A DNA stretch of 64,000 bases from Eledone cirrhosa (lineage: Eukaryota): assembly GCA_964016885.1 (NCBI GenBank), contig OZ024743.1:65410001-65474000 (forward strand), read 5' to 3'. A program made the translations under genes and the position numbers. The notes under the pieces are model-generated. The model was given only the letters and a program-made list of their open reading frames with translations, did not search any database and had not been told where the DNA came from. Below are positions 3,903 to 54,180 of the stretch, piece by piece; position 1 is the stretch's first letter; every line of letters starts with the position of its first letter.

Positions 3903-4224
3903 TTCGTTTTTGAATTCGTTTTGCAAGATTTCTTATCTGAAAACGTGTCGTGTGTTGAAACAGATATTGTTATACTTTGGAAGGGTCATATTGCCAACAA
4001 AAACACACGCACCTGTCGGTTTTCACTTCAATTTATTATAAATTTCCGGGTTAGTTGGTTGGTTCGATAATCGGATGGTTGTTTAGATATTTTCAAAGGA
4101 AGTCACTGAGGAGGTGACATAACGTGTGCCAAAAGATATTTGAAAATATATAAACAACCACCCGGTTATCGAACCAACCAACCAACCAACGAACCAACCA
4201 ACCAACCAGAAATTTGTAATAAAA
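3902..4224. mobile_element. Fold-back PLE family A terminus with degraded HHR (4101-4140); right arm cut off by the LINE 3' UTR
   Basis: Inverted arms ~4033-4097 and ~4139-4224. Sequence matches 53070-53290, the terminus of a coding family A copy. Confidence 0.75.
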
Positions 4225-6033
4225 TAACAATTGAAATCCTCAGTAGGGGGAACGTTACTGCAGGGTTGTTTTACACCCCGTGGATAGAACAACCCGTAAC
4301 ACCAGGAACACGTTTTGTAGGTGTTCCTGACTTCCCTCTGTTTATCTTCCTCAACCTACAGGTTTATATACAGAGAAGGCCCATTCACTCGTGCCATTTT
4401 TGCCACATTCACCCACCTTTCAGCGAATTTACTGGGGTGTAGCACCTCTCTCTCCACTCTCACCTTCCTTCTGAAGTGATACTTAAAGAAGGGGATAAGT
4501 TGTTGTCCGGAGAGAAAGGTGTTTGTCCTCAGTCCTTTTAACCTCGTCCACCATATTACCTCTTTCGCCATAGCCACTAGACAGAGGAAAACCGCCTCTC
4601 CCTCGTTCTTAAATGAAGGCGGCGGGGTGATCCTCACGAAGGACTCGGCTGACAACTGGATGCTTCCCACACGTGACAGCAGCTGTACGACATAATTCCA
4701 CAGGTCGGTCACCCCTGGGCACTGAACAATTGCGTGCAGAACGGTTTCGATGTCCTGCTCGCATCTTGGACAGGTCCTTTTGGCAGGATCTCTGCCAGGG
4801 CGTCCGTGCCTGTCGATTTTGTCTCGAACTGGTAGAGCTCCTCGGTAGTATTGCCAAGCCAGAGACCTCTAGAAGTTATCCATAGGCCCTGGACGGAAAG
4901 TCCTCCCGAACAGACTAGTCAGTTCGTCCTCCTCGATGCCTAGAGTTTCCCCGAGAACGTCGTCGCATTTATCCTCCACTAATCCCCTATAGAATGTCGA
5001 AGTGGAATCTCCGCTGATTGCTGTTTCCGCTTGGTAGAGTGCTGTGAGCGCCTGTAGGCTCTCGAGGTGCCAGGCACCCATTTTCGGTCTTCGCTTGACG
5101 CAGGACTGCAGCTCTCTTAGTGAGACGAGTTGTGGAAGAGTTTGTCTTACAAACGACAGCCACACCGGTTCACCGGTCAGGAATACCTGGAGATGGCGTA
5201 GCCTCAGCGCATGTTTGTGCATCATCAGCTACGGCATGCCCAGCCCTCCGTTAGAAGGGTGTTGATAGCAGATGGATCTCCTCACCAATGGAGCCTGTTT
5301 CTTCCAGAGGAACTTGAAGAGTAGGCGTTCCCTTTTGGTAAGGTAATCGCGGGGGCAAGGCACGACTGTCAAGCGGTAGTAGTTGACGGACGCTATGTAA
5401 GTGTTCGCCACCTCCGCTCGACCTTTCAAGGAGAGTTTGCACTCAGCCAACTTCTGGGTGAGTGCAAACACCTTCGCCGGGACTTCGTTCCAGTTCTTGT
5501 CCTCTTGGGGGTCTGGACCGAACCATACCCCGAGCAATTTCACCGGTCCTTCCGTCTAGCGTCCAACGACACTGTCGGAAGGCATGGGTTTGTCTCTCCA
5601 TGTGCCGAGTTGCAAACCGACAGTCTTGTTTGGGTTTAGTCTTGCTCCGGTCAACGTTTCGTATTCCTGTAATAGGTTACCGATTACTCTGATTTCCGAG
5701 GTTTTCGACACCATTACGGTTATGTCGTTGGCATAGGCTGACGCTGCTTTCCGCAGTCCTGGTTCGATCGGGATGCCCTGCAACAGCTCCAATTTCCGTA
5801 GTAACGGCTCGAGAGTCATTACATACAGAATGGAGGAGAGAGGGCATCCCTGACGGGTGGAACACATGATTTGGAATGGCTCTGATAGGTAGCCATTCAC
5901 ATTGACTGCCGAGCAGATGCTGGTGTGCATGGCAGCGATCCAGCCTCTCGAAGCCGGCCACCTTGAGAACTGGGCCAGCCGCCTTGTGAACTGGGCCGGC
6001 CGCCTTGAGAACTGAGCCGGCCGCCTTGAGAAT
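4225..6033 (-). mobile_element. L1/Tx1-type LINE fragment a (RT C-terminus, zinc-binding tail, partial 3' UTR), degraded
   Basis: Split ORFs give TRQGCPLSSILY, AYANDIT, KLLGVWFG, LSLKGRAEV and GGLGMP, collinear with 63.3-64 kb. A ~21-bp tandem duplication lies at the 5' break (5955-6030). Confidence 0.9.
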
Positions 6034-6035
6034 TG

Positions 6036-6980
6036 AACACGTTTTGTAGGTGTTCCTGTCTTCCCTCTGCTTATCTTCCTCAACCTACAGGTTTATATAC
6101 AGAGAAGGCCCATTCACTCGGGCCATTTTTGCCACATTCACCCACCTTTCAGCGAATTTACTGGGGTGTAGCACCTCTCTCTCCACTCTCACCTTCCTTC
6201 TGAAGTGATACTTAAAGAAGGAGATAAGTTGTTGTCCGGAGAGAAAGGTGTTTGCCCTCAGTCCTTTTAACCTCGTCCACCATATTACCTCTTTCGCCAT
6301 AGCCACCAGACAGAGGAAAACCACCTCTCCTTCATTTTTAAATGAAGGCGGCGGGGTGATCCTCACGATGGACTCGGCTGTCACTGGATTTGTCCCACAC
6401 GTGACAGTAGCTGTTCTACATAGTTCCACAGGTCGGCCACCCATGGGCACTGTACAATTGCGTGCAGAACGGTTTCGATGTCCTGCTCGCATCTTGGAAA
6501 CTTCCTCTTGGCAGGATCCCTGCCAGAGCGTCCGTGTCTGTAGATCTTGTCTTGAACTAGTAGAGCTTCTCGGTAGTATTGCCAGGTCAGAGATCTCTGG
6601 AAGATATCCACAGGTCCTGGACGGGAAGTCCTCCCGAACCGACTGGCCAGTTCGTCCTCTTCGACGTCTAGAGTTTTCCCGAGAACGTCGTTGCACTTAT
6701 CCTCCACTAACCCTGTATAGAATATTGACGTTGAGTCCCCGATGATTGACCTGTCCGCCTGATAGAGGACAGTGAGCGCATTCGAGGTGCCAGGCACCCA
6801 TTTTTGGTCTTCGCTTGACCCAGGACTGCAGCTCCGTTAGCGAGACGAGTTGCAGAAAAGCTTGTCTCACAAACGACGACCACACCGGTTCACCGTTCAG
6901 GAATACCTGGAGATGGCATAGCCTCAGCGCGTTTGCGCACCATCATCCACAGCATGCCCAGCCCGTCGTTGGATGGGACA
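6036..6980 (-). mobile_element. L1/Tx1-type LINE fragment b
   Basis: Second copy of the ORF2 C-terminus (CPRC-like motif, ETVLHAIVQCP, ERWVNVAKMARV). Its 5' end abuts (GATA)n at 6983. Confidence 0.9.
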
Positions 6981-6982
6981 CA

Positions 6983-8350
6983 GATAGATAGATAGTCAGA
7001 TTGATAGATAGATACATAGTCAGATAGATAGATAGATAGACTGATAGATAGATAAAGATAGATATACAGATAGATAGATATATTTCTTTATTTGCCACAG
7101 GGGCGCACAAGGTTAAGGGACAATACAAAGACTCATGCCGGGGATTTTACATACAGTCGTGTAAAAATATTGAAACAAACAATTATAACAATCGAAATCC
7201 CCAATAGGGGGGAAGCGCCACAAATGGGTTGTTTAATACCCCGTCGATAGAACAACCCTCAGCTTCAGGAGCGTGAGTGCTCCCTTCTTCCTTTTGCTCT
7301 CTTCTTTAACATACTGGCTTATAAACAGAGAAGGCCCAATCACTCGGGCCATTTTCGCTTCATTCACCCACCTTTCAGTAAATTTACTGGGGTTCAGTGC
7401 CTCTCTATCCACTCTGATTCTCCTTCTAAAGTGATACTTAAAGAAGGGAATCAATTGTTGTCCGGAGAGAAAGGCATCTGTTCACAGTCCTCTCAATCTC
7501 GTCCACCATATAACCTCTTTCACCATAGCCACTGTACAGAGGAAAACCGCCTCTCTTTCGTTTTTGAAAGAGGCTGGCGGTTTGATCCTTACTATGGACT
7601 CGGCAGTCAATTGGATTTGTCCCATACGCGACAGAAGTTGTTCTGCAGAGTTCCACAGGTCGCTTACGCCCGGGCAGTGTACAATTGCGTGCAAGACGGT
7701 TTCAATGTCCTGCTCGCATCTTGGACAGGTCCTTTTGGAAGGATCTCTGCCAGGGCGTCCATGCCTGTCGATTTTGTCTCGAACTGGTAGAGCTCTTCGG
7801 TAGTATTGCCAAGCCAGAGACCTCTAGAAGTTATCCATAGGCCCTGGACGGAAAGTCCTCCCGAACAGACTAGTCAGTTCATCCTCCTCGATGCCTAGAG
7901 TTTCCCCGAGAACGTCGTCGCACTTGTAAAGTACTAACCCTCTATAGAATGTCGAAGTGGAGTCTCCACTGATTGCTGTGTCCGCTTGACAAAGGACTGT
8001 GAGCGCCTGGGCGCATTCAATGGGCCAGGCGCCCATCTTCTTCGGTCTTCGCTTCACCCAGGACTGCAGCTTCGTCAGCGAGACAAGTTGTGGGAAGGCC
8101 TGTCTCACAAACGGTGCCCACACCGGTTGGTCGGTGAGGAATACCTGGAGATGCCGTAGCCTCAGCGCATGTTTGCGCATCATTAGCCACGGCATGCCCA
8201 GCCCTCCGTTGGAAGGGTGTTGACAGCAGACGGATCTCCTCATCAGTGGAGCCTGCTTCTTCCACAGGAACTGGAAGAGCATGCGTTCCATATTTGTGAG
8301 GTATTCACGGGTACAAGGCACGACAGTCAAGCGGTAGTAGATGACGGACG
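6983..8350 (-). mobile_element. L1/Tx1-type LINE fragment c with complete 3' end and (TATC)n tail
   Basis: ORF2 C-terminus, 3' UTR ending GTGGCAAATAAAGAAATA followed by (TATC)n (6983-7080). Its 5' end abuts (GATA)n at ~8352. Confidence 0.9.
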
Positions 8351-8351
8351 T

Positions 8352-9056
8352 AGAAAGATAGATAGATAGATAAATATACAGATAATTAGAAAGATAGATA
8401 TATTTCTTTATTAGCCACAGGGGCACAAAAGAAGGGGACAAATACAAAGGGGGAAGTTTACATACAATAAAAACGTGTAAAATGTTATCACAGATGGAAT
8501 TTAAAAGTTAGTCGATTTTCCCCAATAGAGGGAGACAGTTTATATGGGTAACACATACCCCCGAAAAAAATGTGCAACCCTCATCTCCAGGAGTACGAAG
8601 AGCTTGTACTCCTTTCCTCTCCTCCTCCTTTTCCTCAACCTACAGGCTGATATAGAGAGAAGGCCCATTCACTCGGGCCATTCTCGCCACTTTCACCCAC
8701 CTTTCATAAAACTTGCTGGGGTACAGCACCTCTCTCTCCATCCTGATTCTTAGAGAGATAGATATGTTTCTTTATTAGCCACAAGGGCACAAAAGAAGGG
8801 GACAAATACAAAGGGGGAAGTTCACATACAATAAAAACGTGTAAAATATTATCACAAATGCAATTTAAAAGTTAATCGATTTTCCCCAATAGGGGGAGAC
8901 ATTAAATATGAGTAACACAAAAAGTGAACCATCATCTCCAGGAGTATTAAGAGTTCGTACCCCTTTCCTCTCTTCCTCTTTTTCTTCAACCTACAGGCTG
9001 ATATAGAGAGAAGGCCCATTCACTCGGGCCATTCTCGCTACTTTCACCCACCTTTC

Positions 9057-9100
<44 letters not shown>
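8352..9100 (-). mobile_element. Two further short LINE 3' ends (d 8401-8750, e ~8764-9058), each bounded by GATA repeats
   Basis: Repeated TTTCTTTATTAGCCACA..GGCACAAAAGAAGGGGACAAATAC termini; (GATA)n at 8352-8400, ~8752-8763 and 9057-9099. Confidence 0.88.
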
Positions 9101-10759: not shown

Positions 10760-11062
10760 CTCTCTCTTTCTTTCCCTATGCGAATAAATTGCTGCTGACA
10801 GAAAGGACTGGAGAGAAAGGTGCCATAGTGCCAACAAGAGCTTTGAATCCAGTCGCATAGAGAAATTGTGTGTTAACTGAACCGGGACGAAGCAACGGGC
10901 CTTGATATCTGCAAGGCTCTCCAAAAACTCTTGCTCTTGCGACCTATATGGCTTGGTCTGTGGGTCACTGGCGAGATTAAAATGTTACATGAGACACCGC
11001 CATCCAGGGAGCTGAACTTTTGTTGGACACTCAGAAGTCGGATATCGACGGGAGAGTCCATT
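10760..11062 (+). mobile_element. RTE-type LINE 3' remnant
   Basis: Manual translation IAADRKDWRERCHSANKSFESSRIEK, then a degenerate C-terminal zinc finger; ends ATCGACGGGAGAGTCCAT. Confidence 0.6.
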
Positions 11063-11080
11063 ATATATATATATATATAT

Positions 11081-11498
11081 AGGAACAAGTAAGACCCCGA
11101 CGGCTGAGCTCAAGCCGTTTCGACGGCTAATTCTGTACTGTACAGAATTAGCCGTCGAAATGGCTTGAGCTCAGCCGTCGGGGTCTTACTTGTTCCTATT
11201 ACCCACTCTACTACCCTAAGTATTGAGTACTTTGGTGCGTTATGGTCCACCTGGTTCCTTACCACATTTCCTTCGTTATATATATATATATATAAATATA
11301 TATATATGAAGGAGATGGGACCCAGACGGCTGAGCTCCTGTCATTTCAACAGCTAGATCCGTTCGGATAGCTGTTGAAACGACAGGATCTCAGCCGTCGG
11401 GGTCTCGAAATCTTCATATTACCCACTCTACTACCCCAAGTATCGAGTACTCTGGTGAGTAATGCTCTAACTGGTTTTTACTGCATCCATTCTGATTT
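11081..11498. mobile_element. Two fold-back PLE-terminus miniatures, family F (11081-11278) and a diverged relative (11308-11498)
   Basis: Inverted arms centred at ~11139 and ~11363, flanked by (TA)n. Retain the HHR 3' half GAAA-C/TGGCT-tgagctc-AGCC-GTC. Confidence 0.75.
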
Positions 11499-11505
11499 AT
11501 ATATA

Positions 11506-11912
11506 TACAGAGGTATCCACTGTAAGTTGTGGGGTCTATTCTGTATGAAGAACTCAATGTAGTCCATATATTGAAAATGTTGTAGGTTAAGATAAATCTC
11601 AGAAAACAATAAAACATTAAAAGGAAAGTAGAGTCATGATATAAGTTAAAACAATGAAATAAAAAATCAAGTCATTAGAGATATACTTCACTGCTTTACG
11701 ATCGTTTCTAGATGGTGATAATACAAAACCTTTTGAAAACAGCTGGTGATATGCATGTAAGTAAATATTCTCTCTATCTGATAGTTTGTAAACTTACATA
11801 GATCAATAACTGAGTATAGATACAATGTATTATCACCATCTAGAAACGATCGTAAAGCAGTGAAGTATATCTCTAATGACTTGATTTTTTATTTCATTGT
11901 TTTAACTTATAT
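11506..11912. mobile_element. Fold-back element (family I) with ~85-bp perfect inverted arms, ending in (TA)n
   Basis: ~11640-11725 is the reverse complement of ~11828-11911. PLE origin inferred from architecture only. Confidence 0.6.
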
Positions 11913-16460: not shown

Positions 16461-16527
<67 letters not shown>

Positions 16528-16696: not shown

Positions 16697-16821
16697 CTGG
16701 GGAAAATCGATTAATTTTTAAATTGCATTTGTGATAGTATTTTACACGTTTTTATTGTAAGTAAACTTCCCCCTTTGTATTTGTCCCCTTCTTTTGTGCC
16801 CCTGTGGCTAATAAAGAAACA

Positions 16822-17544: not shown

Positions 17545-17575
<31 letters not shown>

Positions 17576-17599
17576 CTCTAACTGTCTATTTGTCTGTTT

Positions 17600-20500
17600 G
17601 TCCGTCTGACCTTATGTCTGTCTGACTGTCTGACTGCCGGTTTCTGTCTCTTTGTCTACTCTGTCTGTCTGTCTGACTGCCGGTCTCTGTCCCTTTGTCT
17701 GACTGTTTGTCTACTCTGTCTGTCTGACTGCCGGTCTCTGTCCTTTTGTCTGACTGTTTGTCTACTCTGTCTGTCTGACTGCCGGTCTCTGTCCCTTTGT
17801 CTGACTGTTTGTCTACTCTGTCTGTCTGACTGCCGGTCTCTGTCCTTTTGTCTGACTGTTTATCTACTCTGTCTGTCTGTCTGCCTGTCTCTGTCCTTTT
17901 GTCTGACTGTTTATCTACTCTGTCTGTCTGACTGCCGGTCTCTGTCCTTTTGTCTGACTGTTTGTCTACTCTGTCTGTCTGACTGCCGGTCTCTGTCCTT
18001 TTGTCTGACTGTTTATCTACTCTGTCTGTCTGACTGCCGGTCTCTGTCCCTTTGTCTGACTGTTTGTCTACTCTGTCTGTCTGACTGCCGGTCTCTGTCC
18101 TTTTGTCTGACTGTTTATCTACTCTGTCTGTCTGACTGCCGGTCTCTGTCCCTTTGTCTGACTGTTTGTCTACTCTGTCTGTCTGACTGCCGGTCTCTGT
18201 CCTTTTGTCTGACTGTTTATCTACTCTGTCTGTCTGACTGCCGGTCTCTGTCCTTTTGTCTGACTGTTTGTCTACTCTGTCTGTCTGACTGCCGGTCTCT
18301 GTCCTTTTGTCTGACTGTTTGTCTACTCTGTCTGTCTGACTGCCGGTCTCTGTCCTTTTGTCTGACTGTTTATCTACTCTGTCTGTCTGACTGCCGGTCT
18401 CTGTCCCTTTGTCTGACTGTTTGTCTACTCTGTCTGTCTGACTGCCGGTCTCTGTCCTTTTGTCTGACTGTTTATCTACTCTGTCTGTCTGACTGCCGGT
18501 CTCTGTCCCTTTGTCTGACTGTTTGTCTACTCTGTCTGTCTGACTGCCGGTCTCTGTCCTTTTGTCTGACTGTTTATCTACTCTGTCTGTCTGACTGCCG
18601 GTCTCTGTCCTTTTGTCTGACTGTTTGTCTACTCTGTCTGTCTGACTGCCGGTCTCTGTCCCTTTGTCTGACTGTTTATCTACTCTGTCTGTCTGACTGC
18701 CGGTCTCTGTCCCTTTGTCTGACTGTTTGTCTACTCTGTCTGTCTGACTGCCGGTCTCTGTCCTTTTGTCTGACTGTTTATCTACTCTGTCTGTCTGACT
18801 GCCGGTCTCTGTCCTTTTGTCTGACTGTTTATCTACTCTGTCTGTCTGACTGCCGGTCTCTGTCCTTTTGTCTGACTGTTTGTCTACTCTGTCTGTCTGT
18901 CTCTGTCCTTTTGTCTGACTGTTTATCTACTCTGTCTGTCTGCCTGTCTCTGTCCTTTTGTCTGACTGTTTGTCTACTCTGTCTGTCTGTCTGACTGCCT
19001 GTCTCTGTCCTTTTGTCTGACTGTTTGTCTACTCTGTCTGTCTGTCTGACTGCCTGTCTCTGTCCTTTTGTCTGACTGTTTGTCTACTCTGTCTGTCTGC
19101 CGGTCTCTGTCCTTTTGTCTGACTGTTTGTCTACTCTGTCTGTCTGTCTGACTGCCTGTCTCTGTCCTTTTGTCTGACTGTTTGTCTACTCTGTCTGTCT
19201 GTCTGACTGCCTGACTCTGTCCTTTTGTCTGACTGTTTGTCTACTCTGTCTGTCTGCCGGTCTCTGTCCTTTTGTCTGACTGTTTGTCTACTCTGTCTGT
19301 CTGTCTGACTGCCTGTCTCTGTCCTTTTGTCTGACTGTTTGTCTACTCTGTCTGTCTGTCTGACTGCCTGTCTCTGTCCTTTTGTCTGACTGTTTGTCTA
19401 CTCTGTCTGCCTGTCTGACTGCCGGTCTCTGTCCTTTTGTCTGACTGTTTATCTACTCTGTCTGTCTGACTGCCGGTCTCTGTCCTTTTGTCTGACTGTT
19501 TGTCTACTCTGTCTGTCTGTCTGTCTCTGTCCTTTTGTCTGACTGTTTATCTACTCTGTCTGTCTGCCTGTCTCTGTCCTTTTGTCTGACTGTTTGTCTA
19601 CTCTGTCTGTCTGTCTGACTGCCTGTCTCTGTCCTTTTGTCTGACTGTTTGTCTACTCTGTCTGTCTGTCTGACTGCCTGTCTCTGTCCTTTTGTCTGAC
19701 TGTTTATCTACTCTGTCTGTCTGCCTGTCTCTGTCCTTTTGTCTGACTGTTTGTCTACTCTGTCTGTCTGTCTGCCTGACGGTATCTGTCCCTTTGACTG
19801 ACTGTTTGTCTACTCTGTCTGTCTGTCTGACTGCCTGACTCTGTCCTTTTGCCTGACTGTTTGTCTACTCTGTCTGTCTGCCGGTCTCTGTCCTTTTGTC
19901 TGACTGTTTGTCTACTCTGTCTGTCTGTCTGTCTGCCTGTCTCTGTCCTTTTGTCTGACTGTTTGTCTACTCTGTCTGTCTGTCTGACTGCCTGTCTCTG
20001 TCCTTTTGTCTGACTGTTTGTCTACTCTGTCTGTCTGTCTGACTGCCTGTCTCTGTCCTTTTGTCTGACTGTTTATCTACTCTGTCTGTCTGTCTGACTG
20101 CCTGACTCTGTCCTTTTGTCTGACTGTTTATCTACTCTGTCTGTCTGCCTGTCTCTGTCCTTTTGTCTGACTGTTTATCTACTCTGTCTGTCTGCCTGTC
20201 TCTGTCCTTTTGTCTGACTGTTTATCTACTCTGTCTGCCTGTCTCTGTCCTTTTGTCTGACTGTTTGTCTACTCTGTCTGTCTGTCTGACTGCCTGTCTC
20301 TGTCCTTTTGTCTGACTGTTTATCTACTCTGTCTGTCTGCCTGTCTCTGTCCTTTTGTCTGACTGTTTGTCTACTCTGTCTGTCTGTCTGACTGCCTGTC
20401 TCTGTCCTTTTGTCTGACTGTTTGTCTACTCTGTCTGTCTGTCTGCCTGACGGTATCTGTCCCTTTGACTGACTGTTTGTCTACTCTGTCTGTCTGTCTG

Positions 20501-21160
20501 ACTGCCTGTCTCTGTCCTTTTGTCTGACTGTTTATCTACTCTGTCTGTCTGCCTGTCTCTGTCCTTTTGTCTGACTGTTTGTCTACTATGTCTGTCTGTC
20601 TGACTGCCTGTCTCTGTCCTTTTGTCTGACTGTTTATCTACTCTGTCTGTCTGCCTGTCTCTGTCCTTTTGTCTGACTGTTTGTCTACTCTGTCTGTCTG
20701 TCTGACTGCCTGTCTCTGTCCTTTTGTCTGACTGTTTATCTACTCTGTCTGTCTGACTGCCTGTCTCTGTCCTTTTGTCTGACTGTTTTTCTACTCTGTC
20801 TGTCTGTCTGCCTGACGGTATCTGTCCCTTTGACTGACTGTTTGTCTACTCTGTCTGTCTGTCTGACTGCCTGACTCTGTCCTTTTGCCTGACTGTTTGT
20901 CTACTCTGTCTGTCTGTCTGCCTGACGGTATCTGTCCCTTTGACTGACTGTTTGTCTACTCTGTCTGTCTGTCTGCCGGTCTCTGTCCCTTTGTCTACTC
21001 TGTCTGTCTGTCTGCCTGTCTCTGTCCTTTTGTCTGACTGTTTGTCTACTCTGTCTGATTGCCTGACTGTCTCTGTCCTTTTGTCTGACTGTTTGTCTAC
21101 TCTGTCTGATTGCCTGACTGTCTCTCTCTCTATCTGTCTGTCTGTCTAACTGCCTGTCTC
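17600..21160. repeat. Minisatellite array, modal unit 51 bp, built from (TCTG)n
   Basis: Unit CTCTGTCCTTTTGTCTGACTGTTT(G/A)TCTACTCTGTCTGTCTGACTGCCGGT (e.g. 17991-18041); length variants differ by 4-nt steps. Confidence 0.95.
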
Positions 21161-21597
21161 TGTCTGTTTGTTTCAGTCCTCCTGTCTGTATATCTGACTA
21201 ACTGTCTGTCTCTACCTGCCTGTCTAATTCCTGTCTGTCTGTCTATCTGTATGTCTATCTGATTGACTGTCTGTCTGTTTCTTTTTCTATATGTCTCTTT
21301 GTTTGTTTATGTAGTCTCTCTGTGTCTCTGTCTGTCAGTCTCTCTTCCCTTCTCTCGTTTAGATCCAGTGAAAACCCAGTACATCCGACGAACTTTCGCA
21401 CCGTTTCCGTCAACACAATTTCACTCCCAAGGCTGAGGCTGACTAGAGACAATAGTTGAAGACACCTGCTCATTGTGGCACATAGTGGGCTCAAACTCGA
21501 AACTATGTGTTAACGAAGTGATCTTCTTAACTATACAGCCATGTCTGTGTGTGAACCAGAAGCCTGTTATCGCTCTGTAGTATTCGCATTACATTTT

Positions 21598-24009: not shown

Positions 24010-24512
24010 ATATTTAATAAGATTTTTACACCAGTCGAAACCGGTTATATTTAATGCAATAATTATAAAATTATTCATTCTCACGGATTAAAGAAAAATA
24101 ATCTTTAAGTATACTTCTGTGCATTTTCACCTTCACTTGTGTATTTACTCCACTATCTTGTTGAGTCCTTTATATCAGTTATAAAAATGTTTAAGCTCCC
24201 GGATAAGTGAAGGTGAAAATGCACAGAAGTATACTTAAAGATTATCCGGGAGCTTCCAACCGACATGGTCGCATTCTTTAAGGGTATGTCAATATTTGTT
24301 TATAAAACTGATCTATATTATATTTTATCTGATGAAAGCTCACCATAATTTGCTTTGGTGTCCTTGAAATATGTATAATGAAATAAATATGGGTTTATAA
24401 ATATAATTTCCATTTGTTAATATATTGTATTTTTACTCCAAAAATTTGTTGAGTGCTTTATATCAAAAAATATTTGCTTGTTGTATCCCAACAAATTAAA
24501 TATAACTTCTAC
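24010..24512. mobile_element. Rearranged composite of related PLE termini (J, inverted J piece, H)
   Basis: CGAAACCGGTT at ~24036; 24205-24243 inverts ~24098-24137; H-type HHR at ~24320-24385. Confidence 0.6.
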
Positions 24513-24663
24513 ATATATATATACATATATGTTTGATGATTAAGAACTTTTCTACCTTAAAGTATGTACTTCTTTCTAAATATTATATGTAAAAAATAAT
24601 GTGTTTCTCAAACGATATGTTTCTTTATCTCTCTCAATATACATATATCTTTTAATTTCAAAT

Positions 24664-24757
<94 letters not shown>

Positions 24758-24761
<4 letters not shown>

Positions 24762-47997: not shown

Positions 47998-48068
<71 letters not shown>

Positions 48069-48071
<3 letters not shown>

Positions 48072-48593
48072 CGAAGGAAATGTGGTAAGGAACCAAGTGG
48101 ACCATAACGCACCAAAGTACTCAATACTTAGGGTAGTAGAGTGGGTAATAGGAACAAGTAAGACCCCGACGGCTGAGCTCAAGCCGTTTCGACGGCTATA
48201 TCACCCCCGAGACCGCTCCTCGTACCGGGTTTCCTCCCATGGTTATGCGTACGCGTGCCCCTCGCCAATGTGGTGGTGTCGGGTTCATGGTGTTTAGTTG
48301 TTTTCACTCTGCTTGTATTGTTAGGGTCCCTCTCCCAGATCCCGTGAGTCGGGGTATCCGTTGGGCTATCCCCGTCATGGTGCCTTGGATTATATGATAT
48401 ATTTTGGCCATGCGCCGCCTTATTTAGAGCTGCGTTGTAATATTCCGCGTTGCTATCGAAGATATCCTTATTTGCGGACCGGCTGGAGATCCTGTCCGAG
48501 ACACTCTTCACTACGGCCTTAATTATGGATCTAAGGTGGTTTGACTTCCATCGAAACGGCTTGAGCTCAGCCGTCGGGGTCTTACTTGTTCCT

Positions 48594-48596
<3 letters not shown>
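48069..48596. mobile_element. Fold-back family F element enclosing a PLE ORF fragment
   Basis: Arms 48069-48199 (-) and 48551-48595 (+). The insert on the minus strand reads [46 protein letters not shown] (PLE post-RT helical region). Confidence 0.8.
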
Positions 48597-48654
<58 letters not shown>

Positions 48655-48667
48655 TATATATATATAT

Positions 48668-48717
<50 letters not shown>

Positions 48718-48720
<3 letters not shown>

Positions 48721-49098
48721 GAGGTTATATTTAATTTGTTGGGATAAAACAAGCTTAAAAATATTTTTATAACTGATATAAAGCACCCAACAGATTTTGG
48801 AGTAAATATACAATATATTAACAAATGGAAACTATATTTATAAAACCATATTTATTTTATTATACATATTTCAAGGGCCACCAAGGCAAATTATGGTGCG
48901 CTTTCATGACTATCCAGGAAGCTCCAACCGTTAAGGTTGTTTTTTTCAGGGTATGTCAATATTTATTTATAAAACTAATCTGTATTGTATTTTATCTGAT
49001 GAAAGCGCACCATAATTTGCATTGGTGGCCCTTGAAATATGTATAATAAAATAAATATGGTTTGATAAATATAGTTTCCATTTGTTAATATATTGTAT
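48718..49098. mobile_element. Fold-back PLE miniature, family H
   Basis: Matches 24758-25210; HHR core CTGATGA at ~48996. Confidence 0.8.
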
Positions 49099-49291
49099 AT
49101 ATATAAATATATATATCGTTTTCGATCGTTTACACAGCTGATGAACATTTCTTTTCTTCACTTATTTCGTCCATACTACCATCTTAAACTTTGTTTACAG
49201 TAACCACACACCTCCTTTCGTTTCTTATATATATATATATATAAATATATATATATGTATGTATATGTATATATGTATATATATATATAAG

Positions 49292-52202: not shown

Positions 52203-52250
<48 letters not shown>

Positions 52251-52274
52251 GTAGAGCAAATACACACCCACACA

Positions 52275-52319
<45 letters not shown>

Positions 52320-52321
<2 letters not shown>

Positions 52322-52750
52322 CGAAGGAAGTGTGGTAAGGGACCAGATGGACCATAACGCACAAGAGTACTCAATACTTAGAGTAGTAGAGTGGGTAATA
52401 GAGTGGATGTTCAAAAGACCCCGACGGCAGAGCTCGAACCGTTTCGACGTCCAGAAATAGCCGTCGAAACTGCTTGAGCTCTGTCGTCGGGGTCTTGAAC
52501 ATCCTATATATATATATATATAGGAACGAGTAGGACCCCGACGGCTGAGCTCAAGCCGTTTCGACGGCTAATTCTGGACTAAATGAAAATTTTTATCCTA
52601 AATTTTCATTTAGTCCAGAATTAGCCGTTGAAACGGCTTGAGCTCAGCCGTCGGGGTCCTACTCGTTCCTATTACCCACTCTACTACCCTAAGTATTGAG
52701 TACTTTGGTGCGTTATGGTCCACCTGGTTCCTTACCATATTTCCTTCGAT
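52320..52750. mobile_element. Two adjacent fold-back family F miniatures (52320-52506, 52521-52750)
   Basis: Same sequence as 11081-11278, separated by (TA)n. Confidence 0.8.
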
Positions 52751-52870
52751 ATATATATATATATATAAAATTATATATAATTTCATATATATGCATATAT
52801 ATGCATATATATGTATATATAATATAATTATATATAATTACATATATATGCATATATATATATGTATATA

Positions 52871-52979
<109 letters not shown>

Positions 52980-53075: not shown

Positions 53076-54180
53076 ATACTTTGGGAGGGTCATGTTGCCA
53101 ATAAGAAACACACGCACCAGTTGCTTTCACTTCAATTTATTATATATTTATAAATTTATAAATTTACAAATCTACAAACTTATAAATTATAAATTTCTGG
53201 TTGGTTGGTTGGTTCCACAACCAGATAGTTGTTTATATATATAGTCATAGTCCTTTCGTCCACACACTCTGTGACCTCTTCAGTGACTGGGGATTCCTTT
53301 CTTCGTTTCTGTGCCTTTTCTTTCTTCTATCCTACGCCATTTTGTTTCTGTGTGTGTGTTGTGTGCTCAGTTTGCGCATGTGCCACATCCGGGTGTCTGT
53401 GTGTGTTTGTGTTCATTTTTCTATTTGTTTATTATTTATTGTTGGTTGGTTGTTTGTTCTATGTGTGTGTGTGTTTTCATTTTGTCCTGTGTGTGTTTTC
53501 ATTTTGTGTGTGTTTTCAATTGTAAGTTGTTTGTTCTATGTGTGTGTGTGTTTTCATTTTGTCCTTAATTGTAAGTTGTGATGTTGCTGTTCCACTCATA
53601 TTTTCTATTTAATTTTGGTTTTAATTCTTTTATGCTTACTGCCTCTGTAATTTGCCTAAACATTGCGTCTTTTCTGTGCGTGGATTCTATTTTTATTTCT
53701 ATGCTCTCTAATCTACCCCTGTGTTCTATCTTAGCATGTTGGTAGAGCACAGATGATTTTTTATTATCTTGGAGGTCTCGCCAGTGTTCATTTATTCGTT
53801 CCCCTATACTACGAGCTATCTCACCTATGTACACTATATTTTTGTTTCTACATTGTCCTTCAGTACATCTTATGCTATACACTACATTTCTAGTTTTACA
53901 GTTAATATGGGGGCTTATTTTACAGGTTATACATTTCTTATCTATACATGAGGGTCTTTGGAACGGGTATGTCTTGCTAATAAGTGTTTTTACGGAGGTA
54001 CCAGGTCTTTCTACTATCTTAATATTGAGATTATGTTTATTTAGGGCCCTTCTAAATTTGTAGGCTAGTTCGCCTCTAGGGGTTGTATTGATGAACATTA
54101 CACTCTGGTATTTATTGCTATCATACCATGAGTTTATTCTATTGGCCTTGTTCCTAGTTCTTTCTATTCAGAAACGAAAT
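53068..54180 (-). mobile_element. PLE family A, 5'-truncated copy: GIY-YIG domain, 3' UTR, HHR, terminus
   Basis: ORF 53565..54098 closely similar to the C-terminus of 14..1621; (TA)n on both sides. Confidence 0.93.
53243..53288 (-). ncRNA. Minimal hammerhead ribozyme in the PLE A terminus
   Basis: AGTCA-CTGAAGA-ggtcac..gtggac-GAAA-GGA-CTA-TGACT: stem I AGTCA/TGACT. Confidence 0.7.

Follow-up and report, generated by a model that had tools for sequence, protein, structure and literature searches.

Probable insertion of a Tx1-type LINE at (TATC)n microsatellites and the origin of its head-to-tail arrays in an Eledone cirrhosa contig

Does a long interspersed nuclear element (LINE) whose copies end in TATC repeats insert into such repeats, or does it write them anew as its own tail? 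The question is raised by an array of LINE copies at 4225-9100 of a 64,000-nucleotide stretch of Eledone cirrhosa DNA (contig OZ024743.1, positions 65,410,001 to 65,474,000; hereafter the window), which is animal DNA rich in repeats. An initial annotation of the array read it as a LINE that targets (TATC)n, regenerates this target as a tail and thereby builds tandem arrays. We consider it probable that the octopod branch represented here inserts into existing (TATC)n in a fixed orientation, duplicates the target and leaves a reusable site on both sides.

One Tx1-type LINE family is represented in the window by nine pieces, distributed over three loci (five at 4225-9059 on the minus strand, one at 16698-16821 and three at 58970-64000); self-BLAST, tblastn and a sensitive nucleotide search over the whole window gave no further pieces of the family elsewhere. 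All flank counts given here refer to these three loci and nine copies from a single 64-kb window. The subfamilies are only about 70-80% alike at the 3' end. Nevertheless, all six intact 3' ends (7081, 8401, 8765, 16821, 59098 and 59413), read in element sense, have the form AATAAA(A)GAAAYA followed directly by TATCTATCT, in constant phase and orientation despite this divergence, and poly(A) is absent from all six; the annotated transition into TATC, co-oriented with the repeat, was thus found at every intact end. At the other side, seven of the nine copies have TATCTATC no more than 16 nt from the 5' end, the background being 441 of 109,068 oriented positions (0.004, or 0.4%, with the repeats themselves included). 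Because the nine copies are not independent, the probability was calculated from the four outer insertions only, three of which have TATCTATC at the 5' end (P about 3e-7). With a copy end counted when it fell within 10 bp of a perfect run, AGAT clusters had one in 5 of 5 cases (three loci) and clusters of other units in 0 of 83; AT, AC and AG runs are far commoner in the window, yet lack copy ends. TATC targeting is therefore well supported locally, and the strong association claimed for both flanks stands for these 3' and 5' counts, with two exceptions at the 5' side, copy A of the array described next and the copy at 58970, which has (TTTC)n there.

The array consists, as annotated, of five co-oriented, 5'-truncated minus-strand copies (A, 4225-5950, to E, 8765-9059), and its parts are as follows.

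4010-4224, no strand assigned: inverted-repeat sequence resembling a miniature inverted-repeat transposable element (MITE), adjoining the broken 3' end of copy A; coordinates approximate, set by eye
4225-5950, minus strand: copy A, a 5'-truncated Tx1-type LINE with the C-terminal part of the reverse transcriptase (RT), zf-RVT and a partial 3' untranslated region (UTR); its final ~105 nt are gone and it has 3 in-frame stops
5953-6032, minus strand: B/A junction, a 21-bp tandem repeat (x3.8) of RT-coding sequence from the 5' end of A itself, without TATC
6035-6977, minus strand: copy B, 5'-truncated, with a shortened 3' UTR, frameshifted
6978-7080, minus strand: C/B spacer, imperfect (TATC)n from the 3' end of C to the 5' end of B
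7081-8350, minus strand: copy C, 1270 bp, 3' end intact
8351-8400, minus strand: D/C spacer, 50 bp of imperfect TATC, with one 14-mer at both its start and its end
8401-8750, minus strand: copy D, 350 bp, 3' end intact, with a 14-nt target-site duplication (TSD) with 1 mismatch
8751-8764, minus strand: E/D spacer, 14 nt, the 5' copy of the TSD of D, beginning exactly at the 3' end of E
8765-9059, minus strand: copy E, 295 bp, 3' end intact
9060-9099, minus strand: (TATC)10, the outer 5' flank of the array

The GATA repeats that had been placed at four junctions are confirmed at three copy-to-copy junctions. However, the B/A junction consists of the 21-bp repeat, and the repeat at the fourth position claimed (9057), although present, is the outer flank at 9060-9099 and joins no two copies. 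The 3' ends of A and B are lost; C and D share 232 of 330 aligned bases at the 3' end. Copy A is a mosaic at 4300-4970, 97% identical to C at ~4770-4970 and 97-99% identical to B at ~4300-4570, against 77-92% outside these segments; gene conversion between neighbours or template switching may have produced it.

The remaining copies lie on the plus strand.

16698-16821, plus strand: solitary copy of 124 bp, with (TATC)4 upstream and (TATC)14 downstream
58970-59098, plus strand: copy of ~130 bp inside a compound (TTTC)n/(TATC)n array, with two TATC units as 3' flank and TTTC as 5' flank
59362-59413, plus strand: 52-bp copy belonging to another subfamily, with (TATC)13 upstream
59414-59433, plus strand: (TATC)5 spacer, separating the 52-bp copy from the long one
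59434-64000, plus strand: near-full-length copy running off the window, with 5' UTR, ORF1 and ORF2 (APE and RT)

The 16698 copy sits in an old ~180-bp duplication, the other unit of which has an empty (TATC)3 at 16515. The segment 58246-59361 comprises a gap of 200 N (58246-58445) and, after it, the compound (TTTC)n/(TATC)n array, which has higher-order units. The earlier list of copies was correct as far as it went, but omitted the near-full-length copy, the 5' end of which adjoins (TATC)5. Its ORF1 is open (59951-61477), with a CCHC-type knuckle and a Pro/Thr-rich region; its ORF2, from ~61474, is damaged by a frameshift in a G-run near 61680 and an in-frame stop at 62319.

Since the copies differ both in subfamily and in 5' truncation point, the arrays appear to have been built by repeated insertion, as the initial annotation had proposed. 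A reading without any targeting, in which copies accumulated passively in repeat-rich DNA, arose by local tandem duplication or were mis-assembled by the gap at 58246-58445, could draw on the near-identity of segments of A to C and to B, on the identity of copy D and the 58970 copy over 131 bp and on the scaffold gap near the third locus. We nevertheless find it very improbable, because the array members are overall 70-93% alike with five distinct 5' truncation points, the more abundant AT, AC and AG runs are free of copies, and orientation and phase are constant at all six ends.

A tail newly written at insertion should consist of clean TATC and have no counterpart at the 5' side. The 14-mer downstream of D is found again directly upstream of it with one mismatch; the interruption TATCTGTATAT occurs twice in the 64 kb (7062 and 8374), flanking C on both sides; and TTTCCTTCTTTCTTTC is confined in the window to 58953 and 59147, one occurrence at each side of the 58970 copy, for which a long TSD of 55-70 nt is possible. 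In four of the six ends, the perfect 3' run comprises just 2-3 units and then passes into sequence duplicated at the 5' side. The shared interruptions and the empty paralogous TATC run fit a TSD of a pre-existing repeat; the TSD is shown for D and is probable for C and for the 58970 copy. A tandem-repeat tail would be recognized as a 3' microsatellite without the same repeat in the 5' flank, and the 5' flanks of seven of the nine copies have TATC. No stable 3' stem-loop was seen in the three window 3' ends folded, which behaved like shuffled sequences (z -0.3 to -0.7). The idea that the target is regenerated as a tail was thus not supported as it stood: given the 14-nt TSD of D and the interruptions shared across the flanks of C and the 58970 copy, the flanks behave like duplicated target, and tail regeneration is both unproven and unnecessary.

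Tandem-repeat tails are rewritten in L2, CR1 and RTE elements, and an encoded TATC tail rewritten by the RT at each insertion, with most genomic TATC runs being old tails that attract copies, would account for the lack of poly(A), for the presence of a copy at every TATC locus in the window, for a filled 16698 site about 15 units longer than its empty paralogue and for the two 3' TATC units of C that lack a match in its 5' flank. However, the short perfect runs followed by 5'-duplicated sequence, the TATC runs without a preceding 3' end at 16515, 58809, 59211 and 9060 and a sister branch that is altogether tail-less (see below) make this explanation unlikely.

Several observations weigh against insertion into a pre-existing repeat, in addition to the small base of the flank counts. 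The TSDs are imperfect and located in low-complexity DNA, and automatic search and alignment, dominated by this low complexity, gave no clean TSD for C or for the 16698 and 58970 copies. In three of the six cases the distance between the 3' end and the end of the perfect run is exactly two units, a regularity unlike uniform nicking in a long run and predicted by an RNA-borne stub. The filled 16698 site has ~18 TATC units and the empty paralogue has 3. The 5' TATC is missing in two copies (A and the 58970 copy), and the TTTC at the 5' side of the latter, missed by the 10-bp rule, speaks against strict specificity. The occupation of all TATC loci in the window would also fit an element that seeds or expands TATC. 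Transcripts are generally cleaved 10-30 nt past AAUAAA, and if this RNA is cut there, a short stub of flanking sequence would be expected; given the imperfect TSDs, the two-unit ends and the longer filled 16698 site, it is possible that the RNA carries a TATC stub of at most about two units.

Taken together, these features would fit the following course, with existing (TATC)n microsatellites as the site of insertion and a constant orientation. The APE endonuclease would nick the (GATA)n strand and reverse transcription would be primed at the nick, the junctions themselves showing that no poly(A) was copied; a short read-through TATC stub on the RNA might pair with the primer. Cleavage of the second strand downstream would then duplicate the target, by about 14 nt in the clearest case (D). 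Because the target is duplicated, each insertion would leave TATC on both sides, so that the site survives and other subfamilies could land again, giving head-to-tail arrays of mostly 5'-truncated copies; such arrays are what we observe, and the succession of events is our reconstruction. Copies A and B would have been eroded later by deletions, a MITE-like insertion and local sequence exchange.

To which lineage does the family belong? The layout is that of the L1 group, with two ORFs, ORF2 consisting of an N-terminal APE, an RT and a C-terminal cysteine-rich zinc domain. Pfam matches were obtained for APE (PF03372, E 2.8e-9), RT (PF00078, E 1.4e-24) and zf-RVT (PF13966, E 5.8e-6; 27.3 bits, slightly below the 27.5 cut-off). 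A profile of relatives compared with solved retrotransposon proteins was closest to L1 (human L1 ORF2p E 1e-119; R2 1e-37); the single APE fragment matched no solved structure, whereas the profile of relatives did. Among named homologues, those of Argonauta hians (67%) and of the cuttlefish Acanthosepion pharaonis (48%) match best. In an RT tree of 41 chosen rows, a minor part of the 240 listed homologues and 110 loci, the window copy, Argonauta and row P0207 grouped together (support 100/99). This group was sister to the cuttlefish protein plus a set of arrays described below (100/96), in a joint 13-row clade (100/99). The tree, built without labelled Tx1 references or an L1 outgroup, placed this clade within a 37-row group of poor internal resolution that also holds a 'Transposon TX1' protein (P0113) and the U2-flanked Keno-like loci L001 and L006, and joined it to no fish group. 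The nearest labelled or target-diagnosed relatives are of Tx1 type, which supports the annotation of the element as a Tx1-type LINE; judged by its sequence, the window family most likely represents the octopod branch of a cephalopod Tx1-type (L1 group) LINE clade.

Among the relatives, L001 and L006 (36% and 32% identity) end in U2 snRNA (L001:4675-4885 and L006:5815-5977), L105 adjoins U1, its ORF1 starting about 160 bp past a complete U1 gene (L105:3036-3199), and L009 ends in (AT)27.

The arrays that join the cuttlefish protein came from a scan of prokaryotic genome bins, which gave 44 loci, 40 of them, at ~45% identity, on contigs of one bin (G001, contigs C3-C19; loci L067-L104, L107 and L109), with intact ORFs in several. 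They almost surely stem from an animal host, probably a cephalopod, whose DNA entered the bacterial bin. The elements, 6.4-6.9 kb long with ORF1 and a 1158-aa ORF2, stand head to tail, up to 13 in a row, with 67 3' ends on 16 contigs. The knuckle region of the window ORF1 aligns with the ORF1 of this sister branch (E 1.5e-10), which has PF00098, and the RTs of the two branches are 45% identical. The 25 nt downstream of each of the 67 sister 3' ends contain neither TATCTATC nor an A-run. Instead, in the junctions listed, an array-specific spacer of ~17-18 nt directly follows AATAAA; it equals the outer 3' flank in all three arrays with a visible 3' edge, and of the outer 5' edges, two have it and three do not. 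The sister arrays include separate insertions as well, some of their members being 5'-truncated or differing in their 5' ends. Because arrays form in this TATC-free branch, array building is a trait of the clade for which TATC is not needed. The self-feeding landing pad suggested for TATC is the published double-insertion mechanism, and the longer arrays are those of the TATC-free branch. One sister array begins inside an antisense remnant of another coding element (L090:1000-1050), presumably LINE-like, which is the source of its 17-nt spacer.

These spacers bring in a different reading, namely that targeting is RNA-guided and self-directed throughout the clade. The transcript would be cut about 15-20 nt past AAUAAA, and the resulting 3' stub of donor flank would pair with the nicked primer and favour the flanks of existing copies; TATC would then be a captured flank and not mainly a new endonuclease preference. 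Annealing of the RNA 3' end to the target has been proposed for SART1Bm and R1Bm (in the accessible part of PMC7265360). The sister spacers are array-specific and never TATC or poly(A), and 26 instances of one spacer family lie on 5 contigs, two of which have differing outer 5' flanks without the spacer. In the window copies, the ~15 nt after AATAAA are invariant and end in TATCTATCT; two new copies begin 14 and 20 nt past an older 3' end. However, two sister arrays have the spacer at the outer 5' flank, like an ordinary TSD; concerted evolution or template jumping could equally spread spacers; and no copy precedes the TATC runs that hold the outer, first insertions of the window (9060, 16682 and 59310). 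The endonuclease loop aligned with the L1 hairpin, which we take to be a determinant of specificity, also differs between the branches; its length is 8 residues both in the window copy and in human L1, and 10 in the sister branch. We regard RNA guidance as rather doubtful, and it is with the same reserve that we mention its broader form, in which the target of a coleoid Tx1 clade would be set by its own read-through RNA, through the final ~15-20 nt, and the octopod branch would have captured a TATC flank.

For insertion into existing TATC runs, public data add limited evidence. Part of the stretch is shared by 18 public sequencing runs from 14 organisms, 3 of the runs sharing at least half of its words, and the LINE family is abundant and diverse in contigs from four public runs. 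Among the 15 joints listed (of 572) in these contigs, three, from two organisms, show an intact 3' end, a TATC spacer and a truncation point absent from the window, and the other 12 resemble subfamily switches or internal deletions. The sides of these joints are short (22-27 nt at 80% likeness, flagged unreliable), which makes them weak evidence. Among the 24 loose ends listed (of 3591), none is at a 3' junction. The DNA pattern of the 3' end had no match in viral or genome contigs, the protein alignment search found no relative in viral contigs, and there was no TATC run of at least 4 units among the 45 listed of 66 distant metagenome loci.

An RNA-gene target was also considered and ruled out, Rfam giving no snRNA, rRNA or tRNA beside any copy. 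The sole Rfam match in the window is a marginal tRNA at 28465-28535 (29.2 bits, cut-off 29), perhaps the head of a short interspersed nuclear element (SINE). A 51-bp satellite of about 68 copies with TCTG units occupies 17545-21345; it holds no LINE copy, although TCTG differs little from TATC. Other repeats include Penelope-like elements (RT with GIY-YIG) at 14-2381, 34508-35707 and 36074-38023, the first with an inverted partial duplication (1266-1450 versus 1995-2179) and a second copy at 53552-54169. Short inverted-repeat (MITE-like) families lie at 4010-4224, 11062-11507, 24137-25226, 48001-49113 and 52205-52875, some of them beside (TA)n runs.

These results would add a TATC/GATA target and cephalopod hosts to the list of microsatellite-specific APE LINEs, the targeting of which is called not well understood in the accessible text of a review (PMC3812793). 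The most useful new lead is the contrast with the TATC-free, array-forming sister branch: with this pair, swaps of domains and tails could test whether the endonuclease or the RNA 3' end sets the target. In octopods, GATA microsatellite markers may frequently adjoin this LINE, and the sister arrays are a case of probable host contamination of a bacterial genome bin. If RNA-programmed targeting were true, the sister branch would form locus-specific arrays of up to 13 or more mostly full-length copies with private spacers, and capture of a TATC flank would have given the octopod branch a genome-wide microsatellite specificity, perhaps seeding much of the GATA content of the host; this would be a natural switch of LINE target by flank capture instead of endonuclease change.

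How does the element compare with known systems, as far as these are described in the accessible portions of the sources cited? L1-Tx1 elements have expanded in coleoids and were recently active in Octopus vulgaris, with 13 families and 421 insertions (PMC13282606, PMC8967140), and the window family may well be among the published cephalopod L1-Tx1 consensus sequences. The cephalopod repeat annotations in these portions give L1-Tx1 no target, the words 'GATA' and 'target' occurring 0 times in the main text of PMC13282606. No TATC- or GATA-targeting Tx1 element was found in the literature searched, which did not extend to most subscription papers, Repbase or Dfam. The TATC target in the cephalopod Tx1-type clade is thus probably undescribed, and the array mechanism is known.

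Insertions that preserve the target enable tandems by double insertion, examples being R1 arrays and the dimers of P and jockey (bioRxiv 10.1101/158386); in SINEU-3 tandems, a TSD lies sandwiched between the copies (PMC4494074). The window arrays resemble these in that the target is preserved and duplicated and the next copy adjoins it, a 3' end facing a 5'-truncated start; they differ in that the target is a microsatellite, which can grow by slippage, and the members come from several subfamilies. SART1Bm and R1Bm are likewise repeat-specific APE elements, for which it is proposed that the RNA 3' end, by pairing with the target, fixes where reverse transcription starts, but they belong to the R1 clade, have telomeric or rDNA targets and, in SART1, show junctions with poly(A), which the window junctions lack (PMC7265360). 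Waldo (ACAY), Mino (AC) and Dong (TAA), listed in a review together with TC and TTC targets (PMC3812793), and the TG-specific Togen (PMC4640811) are also microsatellite-specific non-LTR elements; they represent other clades and other repeat units, none of those named there being TATC or GATA. The closest parallel is provided by Kibi (TC), Koshi (TTC) and the crocodilian TTCC/TTTC families, Tx1 elements in microsatellites for which specificity was accepted when >20% of genomic copies were flanked by the same repeat (PMC4494074); the same kind of measure, taken on the window copies only, gives TATC at 7/9 5' and 6/6 3' ends. Like them, the window element is an APE- and RT-bearing Tx1-type LINE in sense orientation in a pyrimidine-rich microsatellite; unlike them, by description and not by sequence comparison, it has TATC as its unit and a cephalopod as its host. 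It works like Kibi and Koshi, the likeness meant here being one of mode.

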